A stretch of DNA of 27,471 bases from an uncultured Candidatus Saccharibacteria bacterium (GTDB taxonomy: Bacteria > Patescibacteriota > Doudnabacteria > UBA920), in contig CAZZBG010000002.1 in the NCBI GenBank assembly GCA_964652865.1, positions 1-27,471 of the forward strand, given 5' to 3'. Below the pieces are notes generated by a model. The model was not told the origin of the DNA, searched no databases, and saw only the letters and a program-made list of their open reading frames with translations. Below are positions 1,147 to 6,557 of the stretch, one piece after another (the first letter of the stretch is position 1; each line of letters starts with the position of its first letter). A program made the translations under genes and the position numbers.

Positions 1147-2004
1147 ATGCTTAAAAATAAAAAGCGTATATTCGGTTTGTTTACTTCTTTACTTGCATTA
1201 ACTTTTTTGTTTCCTGGCGTGGGTAAGGCAGTTAGTATTGCCGGGGACTGTAAGGCGTCATTGTATTTTGCAGTGACTGAAACAAATGGTAAACAAATTA
1301 CAGAGCTGATTCCTGCCCAAATCGGATCACTTAGTGTTGTTTTGTACATGAAGGTAGATTTTAATGACGCTGCTAAGTGCGATACATCCACATGGTCTAG
1401 TGTTACAGCATTCCGTGGTTTTGACGCACTTGTGAAAGATGCAAATCAGTTTATTGGAAATGGTGTTATCACAGCAGTGAGTCCTACTCAATACGAAGTT
1501 AAGCAGACAATAACGACTAGTAATCTACCCGACACGCTTGGGGCAGTACCTAAGGCAGGGTCTAAGATACAGTTACGTGGGTTTATAAATCTTAGAGATG
1601 CAAGTTTGCGTGATAACTTTGTTTATAGCGCTACAAGCACAATCAGTGTGACTGGCAGTGCTCCTAGCGGAGCGCCTACTCCATCAGGGGCAACCGAAAC
1701 TCCATCTACAACCCCTTCTCCAACCTTTACGCCGGGGGTGATTGCCACAATCCAAAACCCGATTCCATTTAACTCACTTGGTGAATTGTTGGTCGCGGCG
1801 ATACGATTTATTTTGACGATGCTTGGTGCGCTTGCGGTGTTCTTTATTATTGTGGGAGCAGTTAAGATGGTAACTTCGCAGGGGAACGAAAAAAATATTA
1901 CGTCTGGTAAGCAAACTATTCAGTGGGCGGTTATTGGTTTAATAGTTGCGCTTATGTCGTTCTCGGTTATTGCGCTCGTCCAAAGTTTCTTGCAGAGACA
2001 ATAA
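1147..2004 (+). CDS. Pilin-fusion 1: signal peptide, unknown beta-rich domain, P/T/S linker, C-terminal TrbC/VirB2-like pilin
   Basis: Signal peptide MLKNKKRIFGLF...VGKA and a PTPSGATETPSTTPSPT linker. The C-terminal two-TM hairpin carries the loop GAVKMVTSQGNEKNITSGKQTIQWAVIG shared with the five neighbours. Confidence 0.85.
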   Translation: MLKNKKRIFGLFTSLLALTFLFPGVGKAVSIAGDCKASLYFAVTETNGKQITELIPAQIGSLSVVLYMKVDFNDAAKCDTSTWSSVTAFRGFDALVKDANQFIGNGVITAVSPTQYEVKQTITTSNLPDTLGAVPKAGSKIQLRGFINLRDASLRDNFVYSATSTISVTGSAPSGAPTPSGATETPSTTPSPTFTPGVIATIQNPIPFNSLGELLVAAIRFILTMLGALAVFFIIVGAVKMVTSQGNEKNITSGKQTIQWAVIGLIVALMSFSVIALVQSFLQRQ

Positions 2005-2044
2005 CGGTTTTTGGCAACATGCCTTTTACAAATTAAACAACCGT

Positions 2045-3001
2045 ATGAAGTTTGCACACATAAAACACGCTCACATATTTTTCGGTTCACTAGCTTTGCT
2101 CGTGCTCGTTTTGGTGCTCATGGATACCAACATTGCTCACGCTGCACTGGTTACGTGTGGTAATGGTGATGGGGGGAAGATTGAAGATAGTTGCAAGTTT
2201 GGAGATTTTTTTAACACTGCTATTGCGTTCATTGACTACATGCTTGCTGGTGCTGCTGTTGCGGCAGTGGGTGGTGTTGTGTGGGGTGGTGCGCTCATGG
2301 TCACTTCCGCTGGTAACCAAAGCAAGGTAGAAACTGGTAAGAAGTCTGTAAAGAATTCGGTGATTGGACTCTCCATTATCCTTGTCGCATTTTTGTTGGT
2401 TCGCAGTGTGTTTACTATATTAGGCTTTCAAGGGGGTGATGCACCGCTGTCTAACCCTGGCGGATTTACCGATCCAAATAGCGGTTTTCAACTGATAAAC
2501 CCTGGGGAAAATAGTGGCGGAACCAACCCTACACCAGCGCCATCTGGTACCACTGGCACTGTGCCTGCCCCATCTGGGTCGTCGCAGGAACTTGCGCAAA
2601 AGATATTGCAAACATTGGGTGCTGGTTGTTTTCGAGATTCCCATATTAGTGGGCTGGGTGTAGGAGATGGTGCAACAGCACGAGATAACATAGTAGATGT
2701 TGCTGCAGGGAGAGCTGCAAAGCGAAGTAGTTACGGTTCTACCACTATTGGGGGGTCTACGACGCTGGACCCACGTATGCTCCAAGCAATGCTCGCTATC
2801 TATGGTGCTGGCTACTCGAGCATATGTCCAATAACCGCTATTGCGGGTAGTGCACATAATACGCGAGCTTCAGCGCACTACTCTGGCAAAGCGTTTGATA
2901 TTGACCAAACTTTGAACGCCGCAAGTATTTTGGCGATTTGCAAACAGTATGGTGCAACTGGGGCGATTAACGAAGGAAATCATTTGCATTGCGAATGGTA
3001 A
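2045..3001 (+). CDS. Pilin-fusion 2: signal peptide, TrbC/VirB2-like pilin, linker, C-terminal M15-type (Hedgehog/DD-peptidase fold) Zn peptidase
   Basis: Start reassigned to ATG 2045, 40 nt after the upstream stop. Pilin loop GGALMVTSAGNQSKVETGKKSVKNSVIG. The C-terminus has SAHYSGKAFDI (H-x6-D) and NHLHCEW (HxH). Confidence 0.8.
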   Translation: MKFAHIKHAHIFFGSLALLVLVLVLMDTNIAHAALVTCGNGDGGKIEDSCKFGDFFNTAIAFIDYMLAGAAVAAVGGVVWGGALMVTSAGNQSKVETGKKSVKNSVIGLSIILVAFLLVRSVFTILGFQGGDAPLSNPGGFTDPNSGFQLINPGENSGGTNPTPAPSGTTGTVPAPSGSSQELAQKILQTLGAGCFRDSHISGLGVGDGATARDNIVDVAAGRAAKRSSYGSTTIGGSTTLDPRMLQAMLAIYGAGYSSICPITAIAGSAHNTRASAHYSGKAFDIDQTLNAASILAICKQYGATGAINEGNHLHCEW

Positions 3002-3019
3002 AACTATATTGAGAATTAT

Positions 3020-3772
3020 ATGAACCAAATCATCTTTTTTATTCGCAAGCATGCACTATTGGTAGGGGTTTTATTTCTCCTTTCTGCTGGTGCAGTTTAC
3101 GCACAAGCAACAAATCCGTTTGCGTGTCCGCAGTACCCAGAGCAAAAAGTTGGAAGTCGTGGTACGTGTGTGCAGCGCATTAAGTGGCACTTGAACAACA
3201 AACAAACTCCTTCCCCTGCATTTGATTTGGAAGGTGATACTGCGCCAGTGTTCGACGCAAAGACCTTACAGCAAGTGCAGAAATGGCAAAAAGATAAAGG
3301 TCTTAACTGTACCGAAGGGGTAGTAGGGCCTGAAACATGGAATTCGTTTGAACCAGGGCTTGGTATGACTGGCCCTTGTGTGGATGGAACAATTAAGACT
3401 GGCGGTAATTCTACCGGAACTACTGGTAACGCTGGATACAGCAACGACCTTACAAAAGAGTGTAAAGATCTGGAACAAAGTTTTACTGATTTTGGGGGCA
3501 GCGTCCCTGGGTCACTCGCGCTTAATTGTTATAGCCCAGGTCAAGGGTTAAACAAAATAATTCGACTTGCGTTTACGTTTGTTGGTATACTCGCTGTTCT
3601 GTTTATTGTGATTGGCGGGTATAAGTACATGACTGCGGCAGGGGACGACAAAAAAGCAGGTGCAGGTAAGAAAACAATTCAATGGGCACTTATTGGTTTA
3701 ATAGCCACACTGTTTGCGTATTCTATTGTCGCTATTGCAACTCGGTTTGCGACACAAAGCACGATTTTCTAG
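3020..3772 (+). CDS. Pilin-fusion 3: signal peptide, peptidoglycan-binding (PG_binding_1-like) domain, C-terminal TrbC/VirB2-like pilin
   Basis: KVGSRGTCVQRIKWHLN...FDAKTLQQVQKWQKDKGL...EGVVGPETWNSF fits the PG_binding_1 pattern. Pilin loop GGYKYMTAAGDDKKAGAGKKTIQWALIG. Confidence 0.85.
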   Translation: MNQIIFFIRKHALLVGVLFLLSAGAVYAQATNPFACPQYPEQKVGSRGTCVQRIKWHLNNKQTPSPAFDLEGDTAPVFDAKTLQQVQKWQKDKGLNCTEGVVGPETWNSFEPGLGMTGPCVDGTIKTGGNSTGTTGNAGYSNDLTKECKDLEQSFTDFGGSVPGSLALNCYSPGQGLNKIIRLAFTFVGILAVLFIVIGGYKYMTAAGDDKKAGAGKKTIQWALIGLIATLFAYSIVAIATRFATQSTIF

Positions 3773-3804
3773 GAAGCAGGAATTAGGTTCTAGGTGGTAG
3801 TAAA

Positions 3805-3845
3805 AACAAAGGTTACCTTCGTACTCTACGAAGGTAACCTTTGTT
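3805..3845. repeat. Perfect 19-bp inverted repeat with 3-nt loop
   Basis: AACAAAGGTTACCTTCGTA-CTC-TACGAAGGTAACCTTTGTT, 32 nt after the pilin-3 stop. Probably a terminator or mRNA stabiliser. Confidence 0.9.
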
Positions 3846-4177
3846 GTCAGAAGCACCAAACCACAAGCACGAAATAGCAAATAAATTCCAATAGTAAAAC
3901 TCCAAACAAATGCAATTCAGTTTTGAGTTTGCAGTTACAGTTTTACGTTTTGTCTTTTGAGTTTGCAGTTCTTTTGACATCAAGACGTTACGACATTAAG
4001 ACGTGAAGACTTATGGTTCTTTCGTTCGACGTTGCGACGTGAAGACTCTCTTGTCTTTCTCGTTTCCCCGCATTCTGCGGGACCCGCTTGAGCGGGCTCG
4101 CTACCCACCTCTTCGGTGGGTCGCCGAAGAGGCGACTAGTTACTCGTTACTTGCTGCCCTAGCGCAATTGCCACTAA

Positions 4178-4188
4178 TGTGGTATACT
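4178..4188 (+). promoter_or_regulatory. Extended -10 promoter for the stand-alone pilin
   Basis: TGTGG-TATACT about 55 nt upstream of the start. No good -35. Confidence 0.5.
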
Positions 4189-4243
4189 CAAAAAGTATTC
4201 ATGGCGTGGAGATTCCGCGCTTTAAGGAAGGGGGTGAATAGAT

Positions 4244-4639
4244 TTGAAACAAATGTTGAAGAATGTTAACTGGCTTGGTTGGGCTCAAGCTTTGCTTGTA
4301 TTTGCTCTTATCCTCGCTCCAGTTACTGTAAGTGCAGCTAAATTGACTGCTCCAAGCGGTCTTTGTGCCACTGGTTTGAATTGTGAAGACAACTTGTCTA
4401 TCAACGGTATTATCATCAGAATCATTAACTGGATTTTGGCGATTGTATTGGCTGTTGACGTGCTCATGATTATCATTGGTGGGTTCATGTACGTAACTTC
4501 TGCTGGTGACGAAGGTCGCGCAAAGAAGGGTCGTACAACCGTTGTCAACGCTATTATCGGACTTGTAATCATCATTTTGGCATATGTTATTGCCAACGTG
4601 GTTTCCAACTTCTTTAGTGCGGATAGACTCCAATCTTAA
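4244..4639 (+). CDS. Stand-alone TrbC/VirB2-like pilin (candidate major subunit)
   Basis: TTG start after a strong SD-like AAGGAAGGGGGTGA, signal peptide ending PVTVSA, a C-x5-C loop and the loop GGFMYVTSAGDEGRAKKGRTTVVNAIIG. No cargo domain. Confidence 0.9.
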   Translation: MKQMLKNVNWLGWAQALLVFALILAPVTVSAAKLTAPSGLCATGLNCEDNLSINGIIIRIINWILAIVLAVDVLMIIIGGFMYVTSAGDEGRAKKGRTTVVNAIIGLVIIILAYVIANVVSNFFSADRLQS

Positions 4640-4722
4640 CCGCTTTTCGCCTACACTGCGTCGTGTTACCTCTCTTCTAGAGCTTGGCTGCAGCCACTCG
4701 GCGCAGTGAAGGCGAACCGGTT
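4638..4722 (+). other. Multibranched RNA structure immediately after the stand-alone pilin stop
   Basis: Outer stem TTCGCCT/AGGCGAA plus CACTGCGTCG/CGGCGCAGTG, closed by AACCG/CGGTT. Inner hairpins CTCT-TCT-AGAG and the palindrome TGGCTGCAGCCA. Confidence 0.7.
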
Positions 4723-4807
4723 TCTTTAACAGAAAAATATACGCGGGATTTCTTCTAAGAAAATGTTAGTAGTACTGCCGTGTTTATTTTTCTAAACACA
4801 AATAGAT

Positions 4808-5644
4808 ATGCTTTTTAGAAATTTTAATTTTGGTTCATTGTCTCGGAGCTTCTTTGTAGCTCGGATTTTTTTTGTTTTACTCTTTGCAGTAGCGACTCCG
4901 CTGACAGCGTACGGGCAACAAAGCGCGAGTGATCCAGTGATCGTAGAAAGTCGTGCATGCCCACAAATTTCTTCTCCGGCAAACTCTTGCTTTAGTTTGT
5001 CGCAAATGAAGCCAAGCGAATACGTTGTGCTTGTGGTGAGTAATGTCTTCCAGTACAATACGCTGAAAGTGTTCCTAGACGGTTCTACTGAACTGCAACA
5101 ACAAAACTTTGTACGCAATGGAGGAAATTTAGCCACAGTTGTAGCTGCGTTACCACAAGATATAGAGCCTGGCTCTGCACACCAAGTTGCTGTAATAATT
5201 GATCAAGGAAATGTGCCGAGCGCACCAGTGAATCTGTCTATCCGAGGGGTGGCACCAAGCACTGCACCTACTGGTGGAGGGGGCGCATCGGGTGGTGGGA
5301 GCACCACGCCGAAGCCTACGGTAAACCCAAATGCTGGTGGCAGTGTGAAAGATGGTCTCAAAGGCATAGCGGGTGAGTTCCAGTATCAAGGTGAACTTGC
5401 CCAATCGCAAACCATTGGAGATGTGATTGTCGCAGTCATCAACGTTTTACTAGGGTTGCTCATGGCAATTTCTGTGCTCATGATAATTTTTGGTGGCTTT
5501 ACCTATGTCACCGCAGCAGGGGCAGAGGACAAAGCTAAGAAGGCTCGCCGGATTATTACCTATGCGGTAACTGGTATGATAATAGTAATACTATCTTACA
5601 TGCTGGTGTCTACTATAAGTAACGCGCTAGATGGTCAAATCTAA
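4808..5644 (+). CDS. Pilin-fusion 5: signal peptide, Ig/IPT-like domain, G/S/T/P linker, C-terminal TrbC/VirB2-like pilin
   Basis: Signal peptide ending PLTAYG, a beta-rich domain and linker STAPTGGGGASGGGSTTPKP. Loop GGFTYVTAAGAEDKAKKARRIITYAVTG. The Ig assignment is tentative. Confidence 0.85.
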   Translation: MLFRNFNFGSLSRSFFVARIFFVLLFAVATPLTAYGQQSASDPVIVESRACPQISSPANSCFSLSQMKPSEYVVLVVSNVFQYNTLKVFLDGSTELQQQNFVRNGGNLATVVAALPQDIEPGSAHQVAVIIDQGNVPSAPVNLSIRGVAPSTAPTGGGGASGGGSTTPKPTVNPNAGGSVKDGLKGIAGEFQYQGELAQSQTIGDVIVAVINVLLGLLMAISVLMIIFGGFTYVTAAGAEDKAKKARRIITYAVTGMIIVILSYMLVSTISNALDGQI

Positions 5645-5648
5645 TAAT

Positions 5649-6557
5649 ATGAAAACTATTAAATACTTATTTACCTATTTCTTCCTCGTGGCTTTCATTT
5701 CGTTAACGAGTTTTATTCCTAATTTTGTCTTAGCTGCGTTTGGTGATATTACAAATATTTATAGTTGCAAAACAATCAAACCTCCTTCAACTATTCCTGA
5801 AGAATGTTATCCAGGGATTACAGTAGATGATTCGTACATTCTTTTGTACGGTTCAGGGTTTAATCCAGAGAGTGATACAGTAACGATAGCAGATGTAAAT
5901 GTACCTATTATTAAGAATGGGTCGAATGGTGGCATGCTTGTCTTGGATATGCCAAACTCTCTGCGTGCTGTCGCCAAAAATTCTACAGGACAAGTTGTTC
6001 TCTTGGTGAAAGCTATGAGCGGTGATTTTATTGAAAAGTCTGTGTCTCTCCTTTGCGCCAATGAAGCATGTGCCGCCACAACTTCTCCTACCCCAATAAT
6101 TAGTTCAACACCGAATGCTTCGGTAACACCAAAGCCTTCCGGTGCTTCTCCGTCTCCAACGGGTAGTGGTAGCGCTACTCCTCCAACTCAGCCCATAGAG
6201 ACAGACTTACGCGGTGAGTGTCAGAAGCAGGGGTTGCAATACGACAATGCGAGCGGGTTGTGCTTGCCAACGAACCCGTACAAGGCCAGTGCAGATAGCT
6301 TGGCGGGCCAGACAACACTCGGTGGGCTCATTCGTCGAGTGCTGAATATCTTACTGACTTTGGCTGGGGTGGTCGCTGTGCTCATGATTATTTTGGGTGG
6401 GTACCAGTACGTTACCTCTCGTGGTGCAGAAGACCAAGCAAAGGCTGGTCGCAAGACAATTACTTACGCTGCTATTGGACTTATCGCTGTACTCTTGGCA
6501 TATATGCTGGTCACGGTTGTTACGAACTTTGCCACACAAGGCGTGTTGTTTAACTAA
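5649..6557 (+). CDS. Pilin-fusion 6: signal peptide, IPT/TIG-like domain, P/S/T linker, C-terminal TrbC/VirB2-like pilin
   Basis: Start reassigned to ATG 5649, 4 nt after the upstream stop. ILLYGSGFNP resembles the IPT/TIG GxxF strand. Loop GGYQYVTSRGAEDQAKAGRKTITYAAIG. Confidence 0.85.
   Translation: MKTIKYLFTYFFLVAFISLTSFIPNFVLAAFGDITNIYSCKTIKPPSTIPEECYPGITVDDSYILLYGSGFNPESDTVTIADVNVPIIKNGSNGGMLVLDMPNSLRAVAKNSTGQVVLLVKAMSGDFIEKSVSLLCANEACAATTSPTPIISSTPNASVTPKPSGASPSPTGSGSATPPTQPIETDLRGECQKQGLQYDNASGLCLPTNPYKASADSLAGQTTLGGLIRRVLNILLTLAGVVAVLMIILGGYQYVTSRGAEDQAKAGRKTITYAAIGLIAVLLAYMLVTVVTNFATQGVLFN

Follow-up and report, generated by a model that had tools for sequence, protein, structure and literature searches.

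A pilin fused to a peptidoglycan-binding domain in Doudnabacteria-like genomes: a candidate tether between a pilin-based secretion structure and the cell wall

What could a conjugative-type pilin do with a peptidoglycan-binding domain, and does it depend on the putative peptidase that is encoded right next to it? This question is raised by a stretch of 27,471 nucleotides (positions 1 to 27,471 of contig CAZZBG010000002.1, GenBank assembly GCA_964652865.1), which we refer to as the window. It belongs to an uncultured Candidatus Saccharibacteria bacterium with a Doudnabacteria-like assembly of about 0.88 Mb, 91% complete and divided over 124 contigs. The gene at 3020-3772 (+) encodes a protein of 250 amino acids (aa) in which a PG_binding_1 domain is joined to a VirB2-like pilin, and it is the third of six co-oriented tandem PF18895 genes located at 1147-6557. 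An initial annotation had proposed that this protein and its upstream neighbour are the binding and catalytic modules of a wall hydrolase, split across two pilin subunits and reunited by co-assembly. Here we find the fusion itself well supported, and correct the split-enzyme idea, which is attractive yet unsupported. Instead, we favour a conserved minor pilin paralogue that ties a pilin-based structure of a type IV secretion system (T4SS) to peptidoglycan, a reading to which we assign a probability of about 0.5.

The identity and architecture of the fusion can be stated with high confidence. A Pfam search, which the initial annotation had suggested as a check for PF01471, places both domains above their cut-offs: PF18895 (T4SS_pilin) scores 40.2 bits against 26.6 over residues 177-237, and PF01471 (PG_binding_1) reaches 27.8 bits over residues 73-108, its cut-off being 23. 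When the genome was searched with PF01471 in all six frames, this gene was the sole PG_binding_1 match, at 30.7 bits and over profile positions 5-55. We found 17 homologues with 45-78% identity, and 16 of the 18 family members, this protein included, carry a precomputed PG_binding_1 domain; for one homologue the NCBI annotation reads just ‘peptidoglycan-binding protein’. PG_binding_1, as known from the binding domains of phage endolysins, is marked by two repeats of D-G-(hydrophobic)2-G-x-x-T. The second repeat of the present ectodomain reads E-G-V-V-G-P-E-T-W, and relatives have D-G instead of E-G.

From its N-terminus onwards, the protein starts with a signal peptide of residues 1-29 (3020-3106, +), in which a hydrophobic core, seen by hydropathy as a segment at 3-31, precedes a putative cleavage site between VYA and Q. 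It is followed by the Cys-rich PG_binding_1 ectodomain of residues 34-120 (3119-3379, +; C36, C50, C97 and C120), as outlined by Pfam, conservation, the structural model and fold matches, and by a flexible linker rich in G, T, N and S (residues 121-142; 3380-3445, +), where the predicted local distance difference test score (pLDDT) drops below 50. A conserved ‘head’ preceding the membrane (residues 143-172; 3446-3535, +; C148 and C170) is common to the paralogues, and those without cargo match the profile from about this head onward. The invariant positions in and near it are C148, F155, F158, G159, G160, C170, Y171, P173 and G174. The VirB2-like two-helix hairpin, residues 173-245 (3536-3754, +), consists of a first transmembrane helix, the basic loop GDDKKAGAGKKT and a second transmembrane helix, as found by PF18895, the model helices and hydropathy. 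Hydropathy places the two membrane segments at 176-208 and 219-245, with four K/R and two D/E in the loop between them, while an AlphaFold model made from 18 homologues has the hairpin helices at 175-205 and 210-245. Mean identity among homologues falls from 70% in the hairpin to 60% in the head, 54% in the wall-binding domain and 22% in the linker. Since the hairpin is the best conserved part, it is likely constrained beyond the needs of a plain membrane anchor.

The three-helix pattern that the initial annotation had read in the ectodomain is borne out as well. In the AlphaFold model the helices lie at 49-61, 80-92 and 104-110, with pLDDT 78-87, and the best 20 Foldseek matches in the PDB are wall-binding or wall-active proteins, found with a probability of 0.92-1.00 though with E-values of only 5e-3 to 0.45. 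These include SleC, the EpsAB periplasmic domain (4G54), the endolysins of phages AP3 and phiKZ, LdtA, CtpB and 1LBU, as well as the SleB N-domain with a template modelling (TM) score of 0.79. Against the A. pernix pilus 8DFU, Foldseek gives a TM-score of 0.62 by target length, but with an E-value of 2.9, and a feature search of the ESM Atlas with the 250-aa protein gave no usable match. Of the ‘extra’ cysteines ascribed to the wall-binding domain, part can be retained. There are six, of which C36, C50, C120, C148 and C170 are invariant in the 18 homologues and C97 nearly so, but C148 and C170 are shared with cargo-free paralogues and belong to the pilin head, outside the wall-binding domain. 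Where C97 is absent, in five homologues, another Cys appears slightly further downstream, which suggests a disulfide between C97 and C120, and conservation together with this compensating shift would pair the cysteines as C36-C50, C97-C120 and C148-C170. Judging from the sequence, the mature protein carries its PG_binding_1 domain at the N-terminus, where it is probably stabilised by disulfides.

Does this domain serve as the targeting half of an enzyme? The gene immediately upstream, at 2045-3001 (+), encodes 318 aa with a signal peptide, an N-terminal pilin hairpin (PF18895, 28.8 bits), a P/T/S/G linker and, at its C-terminus, a domain of some 145 aa. It stops at 3001 and the PG-binding pilin starts at 3020, which leaves the gap of 18 nucleotides (nt) that the initial annotation had given. 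Its description there as an M15 fusion holds up only partly. The zinc pattern H-x6-D plus HxH is present as H278-x6-D285 and H313-L-H315, and a domain-only profile matches Hedgehog N-domains in the PDB (E 5.6e-4), aligning the zinc-site residues with those of the Sonic hedgehog N-domain. H271, H278, D285 and H315 are invariant, the latter three across 13 domain sequences, whereas H313, the first His of HxH, varies. All Pfam M15 models stay below their cut-offs on this protein: Peptidase_M15_3 reaches 13.4 bits against 23.2, and 13.4-17.7 bits over the scanned sequences. Among the 17 sequences scanned, such sub-threshold matches to Peptidase_M15_3, HH_signal and Peptidase_M15_4 occur in five, three and two, respectively, and we take HH_signal and Peptidase_M15_4 to belong to the same clan as M15. 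The VIA wide search aligns 102 residues of 1LBU over 176-318 with a middling Z-score of 6.8, no other listed match being confined to the C-terminal domain, while Foldseek against the PDB gave no significant match. On the strength of these residues and the profile, we call this domain a putative, divergent zinc peptidase of the LAS type (Hedgehog/DD-peptidase fold, M15-like).

There are good reasons why a split hydrolase, whose halves would co-polymerise so that the binding module targets the catalytic one, suggests itself here. The two genes are 18 nt apart with no terminator in between and a strong RNA hairpin after the second, and a single-chain precedent exists in the zinc D-Ala-D-Ala carboxypeptidase of Streptomyces albus G (1LBU, MEROPS M15A), in which PG_binding_1 and a LAS zinc peptidase domain occur together and which is a fold match of both our models, one domain each. 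However, that enzyme is one soluble, secreted chain, whereas here the modules are on separate membrane-hairpin proteins with largely independent distributions. The latter became clear from a comparison of 146 genomes of the class; no statistic is attached to the counts that follow, since genomes that are related do not make independent data points. Five species of one genus, this genome included, are the only ones among the 146 in which the two fusions are neighbours, and they are adjacent and co-oriented in all five. This adjacency within the genus follows from both genes being part of one array, and the spacing is tight only in the two closest species, with a gap of 159-266 nt in G069 and G072.

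Beyond these five species, each fusion occurs without the other. A query with the wall-binding ectodomain matches all nine species of the genus, this genome included, and one genome of another genus; the match of G068 covers the head only, the PG_binding_1 domain being missing, so that orthologues of the PG-binding pilin are present in eight of the nine species, again counting this genome. The M15-like query matches five of these nine species, plus ten genomes from other genera. At least ten other genomes, from six genera, retain a PG-binding pilin where the M15 query found nothing, among them G071, G073, G075, G054, G052, G062, G063, G082 and G097, next to the metagenome arrays L006, L029 and L030. 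Conversely, nine genomes have the M15-like domain, in seven of them on a pilin hairpin, without a detected PG-binding pilin, and G053 has both fusions on different contigs. The initial annotation had reasoned that independent phyletic distributions would speak against its proposal, and largely independent distributions are what we find; as a general explanation, we reject the split hydrolase on these grounds. We consider it quite unlikely for the present pair too, although a local, facultative cooperation of the two fusions in the five species is conceivable. That the PG-binding pilin functions independently of the M15-like protein is, in our view, rather probable.

The wider occurrence of the PG-binding pilin was followed with a broader profile, A5, for distant wall-binding pilins, after which Pfam was run on five of the matched open reading frames. 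The same PG_binding_1-plus-pilin architecture recurs in five further genera of the family, one per pilin array each time. Outside the genus, A5 finds it in G052 and G053 (genus g8), G062 and G063 (g17), G082 (g23) and G097 (g27). The fusions of G052, G053, G062, G082 and G097 and the metagenome proteins P0076 and P0130 exceed the Pfam cut-offs, and those of G054 and G063 were recognised via the family's own profiles. PG_binding_1 scores of the distant fusions range from 24 to 64 bits. Each of these out-of-genus pilins is one gene of an array of five to seven pilin genes, none of which contains an M15 domain. In a phylum-wide sample of 401 genomes searched at E <= 1e-26 no full-length fusion appeared outside the family, a threshold so strict that absence is not shown by it. 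Homologues of both the PG-binding pilin and the M15-like pilin are few, and come from Doudnabacteria-like assemblies.

How the wall-active cargoes are distributed over the hairpins provides a further argument. In a tree built from 67 hairpin domains there are six orthogroups, and since the out-of-genus genome G054 has a member in every one of them, each paralogue is kept for a role of its own. The stability of these six orthogroups across genera also makes antigenic variation unlikely, which has been proposed for the Trw pilin arrays of Bartonella. M15-bearing pilins share one orthogroup (support 100/100) with cargo-free pilins of about 155 aa from G068, G071, G073, G075, G054 and L006, and the cargo-free pilins of L029 and L030 match the hairpin profile of the M15-pilin. 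From this mixture we conclude that the M15 domain was gained or lost on an otherwise conserved pilin, which is at odds with a split enzyme. Outside the genus, the hairpins of pilin-M15 fusions group in a clade of their own (98/100), so that this one cargo resides on different hairpin lineages. The order of genes varies along with this cargo, as seen when L011/L005, L012, L013, L015 and L014 are compared with 1147-3772 of the window: in species without the M15 domain the orthologous ~155-aa pilin comes first, ahead of the gene-1 type, and in those with it the order is reversed. Gene-1 and gene-5 types occur with or without an ectodomain depending on the species, some species having short forms that lack the cargo.

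In G059, two neighbouring genes (L021:6451-7503, -, and L021:8024-9070, -) are 95% identical over a signal-plus-hairpin region of 129 aa, while their C-terminal cargoes are unrelated, one being LAS/M15-like and the other SLT_3 lysozyme-like, which has the appearance of a recent duplication in which the cargo was swapped. Furthermore, the genome of the window contains a seventh PF18895 protein, away from the array and without a nearby PG-binding partner: a 488-aa protein at G000:C21:2647-4113 (-), equivalent to L027:651-2114 (-), with an N-terminal hairpin and a C-terminal SLT domain (PF01464, 69.9 bits). This second pilin-hairpin wall-hydrolase fusion of the genome adjoins a coiled-coil Peptidase_M23 protein of the PcsB type (C21:4141-5430, -). 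The M15-pilin gene is therefore best read as one of several interchangeable wall-hydrolase cargoes, M15-like or SLT, on the same kind of hairpin, and among all cargoes the wall-binding one is the most stable. One family, then, reuses the pilin hairpin as a carrier of wall-binding and wall-cutting domains, with the wall-binding version as a conserved member of the array.

So how would such a pilin work? VirB2-type pilins are inserted in the membrane with their loop in the cytoplasm and both termini outside, and in solved conjugative pili, which grow from the base, the termini point outward. Besides wall enzymes, PG_binding_1 domains are found in secretion-machine components that have no catalytic role, GspA/EpsAB among them. 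In the favoured reading, the protein would be exported via Sec and its hairpin inserted in the same orientation, leaving the wall-binding domain above the membrane on a flexible tether of some 50 residues. At low copy number it would then join or flank a pilin polymer assembled by a VirB4/VirB6 machine, and through its predicted wall-binding domain this polymer would be tied to peptidoglycan. If the target is the cell's own sacculus, the outcome would be a basal wall anchor for a base-growing pilus in a monoderm cell, which has no outer-membrane complex. Our reasons for tentatively preferring this own-wall target are the short tether, a single-copy orthologue with moderate conservation instead of diversification, and the lack of an outer-membrane complex that could hold a monoderm fibre. 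The fold match to the EpsAB periplasmic domain (4G54) offers a non-catalytic, secretion-system-associated precedent for this. Together, the reuse of the hairpin as a carrier and the conserved wall-binding version provide a testable idea for the role of the arrays, namely to couple a T4SS structure to peptidoglycan and to remodel the latter.

Several observations weigh against this tether. The Pfam match to PG_binding_1 spans profile positions 21-55 only; the first repeat is degenerate and has a 4-residue insertion in this sub-lineage, where relatives have N-G-D-F-D-T-A-T; the AlphaFold model is middling with a mean pLDDT of 64, and the Foldseek E-values are 5e-3 or worse. Packing would probably suffer if every subunit bore a globular domain of 80 residues, and incorporation at low copy number is an assumption made with that in mind. 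Peptidoglycan binding, polymerisation and localisation of the protein are all predicted from sequence and model, and whether the target is the own wall or that of a host is not decided by the data. Lastly, in this fragmented assembly the array does not adjoin the VirB4-like or VirB6-like genes. Even so, we ranked the three rival explanations, being the split hydrolase, the absence of a pilus and adhesion to a host wall, below the favoured reading.

Genes for a T4SS assembly machine are present in the same genome. A VirB4-like ATPase on contig C50 was seen through P-loop_TraG (83.3 bits) and AAA_10 (35.8 bits) only, PF03135 (VirB4) itself not being found in the genome, and a TrbL/VirB6-like protein on C22 is borderline with 21.9-26.6 bits against a cut-off of 25.9. 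The ATPase consists of two adjacent reading frames at G000:C50:1649-4212 (+), or L002, of 233 aa (a faint TraC_F_IV) and 617 aa (P-loop_TraG), which may reflect a gene that is split or an arrangement of two genes. Alternatively, the PF18895 hairpin might have nothing to do with a pilus, serving instead as a two-helix anchor or export module that displays ectodomains, in which case the PG-binding protein would be a membrane-to-wall tether or a wall sensor with no role in a T4SS. The exchange of hydrolase cargo on the near-identical hairpins of G059 would fit such a module, as would the SLT-pilin beside an M23 peptidase, the position of the array amid housekeeping genes (FtsH, RNase III and SMC) away from the VirB4-like gene, and the fact that T4SSs of monoderms normally have no pili (PMC12102498). 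Conversely, the hairpin with its basic loop is better conserved than the ectodomain, and the orthogroup of small, cargo-free pilins, to which gene 4 belongs, is represented in every array examined in the hairpin tree. The hairpin of the M15-like neighbour matches the archaeal conjugation pilin 8DFU_B best among 48,161 chains (Z 8.4), a score that helical hairpins nevertheless often reach. Moreover, in Ca. Southlakia epibionticum a six-pilin array is essential and lies inside the T4SS cluster (Wang et al. 2023, PMC10633639). Taken together, we regard a hairpin without any pilus as unlikely.

If, on the other hand, the protein does reach the exterior of a pilus, its wall-binding domain could instead bind the exposed peptidoglycan of a Gram-positive host, whose wall the hydrolase pilins (M15-like, SLT) would then open. 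This is the second option for the wall target, after an anchor in the own sacculus. The outward termini of solved conjugative pili mean that an N-terminal cargo would be displayed, and this scaffold also carries wall-hydrolase cargoes in the same genome. Cultivated Patescibacteria are epibionts that need their T4SS and pilin array to grow on the host. However, if the host of this lineage were a diderm or an archaeon, its peptidoglycan would be hidden or absent. Furthermore, the domain would first have to cross the own wall without binding to it, and rapid diversification was not seen among the homologues, with one orthologue per array at 54% mean identity over the domain. Adhesion to a host wall is therefore improbable in our estimation. 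Somewhat broader is the idea of a functionalised T4SS fibre, in which a cargo-free major VirB2-like pilin would be interspersed with minor pilins carrying interchangeable outward domains, such as the PG-binding module, the LAS zinc peptidase, lytic transglycosylases and adhesin-like domains of unknown type, and which would itself bind and open a wall, be it the own one during assembly or that of a host during attachment. We deem this rather unlikely as well, yet if true it would be the first conjugative-type pilus known to have enzymatic or ligand-binding subunits. More generally, any of these domains residing on a real fibre would extend what is known of conjugative-type pili.

The VirB2-type pilins known so far are small, at about 70-130 residues, and have no additional domains, and to our knowledge none of the known VirB1-type proteins is fused to a VirB2-like hairpin. 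Such hydrolases (VirB1, PrgK, and TraG of pIP501) are comparable to the present proteins in being wall-active modules dedicated to a T4SS, here in the form of SLT and M15-like domains on pilin hairpins, but differ in that the PG-binding pilin has no catalytic domain. Comparable too are the GspA/ExeA-type accessory proteins of the type II secretion system (EpsAB 4G54, the third-ranked fold match), where PG_binding_1 likewise resides on a membrane-anchored, non-catalytic machine part tied to the own wall. Those, however, serve a diderm system, use another membrane anchor and are not pilins. By analogy from general knowledge, the PG-binding pilin might also be likened to SpaB of Corynebacterium diphtheriae, a basal sortase pilin, in that a minor pilin is proposed to fix the base of a fibre to peptidoglycan, whereas sortase basal pilins are attached covalently and have an unrelated fold and assembly pathway.

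In Patescibacteria, VirB2-like arrays of 2-11 genes have been described for 383 assemblies (PMC12102498, PMC12857230). The locus studied here resembles such arrays (Quinonero-Coronel et al. 2025, PMC12102498; PMC10633639) in having tandem, co-oriented and divergent PF18895/VirB2-like genes, six in this case, in a small genome of the candidate phyla radiation that also has VirB4-like and VirB6-like genes. It differs in that the pilins there are treated as small, whereas here five of the six have ectodomains, and in that the array lies away from the VirB4-like gene. Fused globular domains are not mentioned in the accessible parts of these papers (PMC12102498, PMC12857230, PMC10633639), and a literature search combining ‘VirB2-like’ with ‘peptidoglycan-binding’ found no paper. 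The PG_binding_1-bearing pilin is thus apparently a recurrent architecture that has gone undescribed so far. Its relevance lies in the handle that it gives on the arrays themselves, which are essential in the sole genetically tractable Patescibacteria species.

As for the remainder of the array, all six proteins have a signal-like segment, two transmembrane segments and an even number of cysteines, all of them outside the transmembrane segments as judged by hydropathy, and the ectodomains of the five that have one include PG_binding_1 and the LAS peptidase. Gene 1 (1147-2004, +; 285 aa; PF18895 28.7 bits) encodes an N-terminal ectodomain of unknown type followed by a C-terminal pilin hairpin, and forms an orthogroup of its own. 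Gene 4 (4244-4639, +; PF18895 39.2 bits) encodes the cargo-free pilin of 131 aa that is the candidate major subunit, whereas genes 5 (4808-5644, +; 278 aa; 31.2 bits) and 6 (5631-6557, +; 308 aa; 46 bits) each combine an N-terminal ectodomain of unknown type with a pilin hairpin. Some metagenome proteins are concatenated pilins with four to six PF18895 hairpins in one polypeptide, as in P0045, which at 552 aa has six PF18895 repeats (235.9 bits).

The RNA hairpin mentioned above lies at 3805-3845 (+), where the arms of an inverted repeat pair perfectly over 19 bp around a 3-nt loop, just 3’ of the PG-binding pilin gene. When 3770-3865 was folded, it reached -38.5 kcal/mol (z -6.3), and none of 200 shuffled sequences was as stable. 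Its probable role, as far as the sequence can tell, is to end the transcript of genes 1-3 or to make it more stable; since the + strand has no T-tract at this position, a role as terminator can only be inferred. Scans for promoters and terminators stayed at background, with 12 found where 11.6 were expected and 7 where 6.1 were, respectively. Downstream of the array follow tRNA-Leu, FtsH, RNase III, SMC and other housekeeping genes.

On its other side, the window begins within a membrane-protein gene (1-624, -). The end of contig C8 (G000:C8:17114-21315) has genes of 423, 372, 207 and 342 aa. In size and order these resemble the genes that lie upstream of the array in L004, the closest relative, and C8 probably joins the left end of the window. 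None of the four complete genes upstream of the array in the related locus L005 has a Pfam match. In the two related metagenome contigs L006 (3211-5490, +) and L030 (861-3152, -), a class A penicillin-binding protein with Transgly and Transpeptidase domains is encoded directly upstream of the array.

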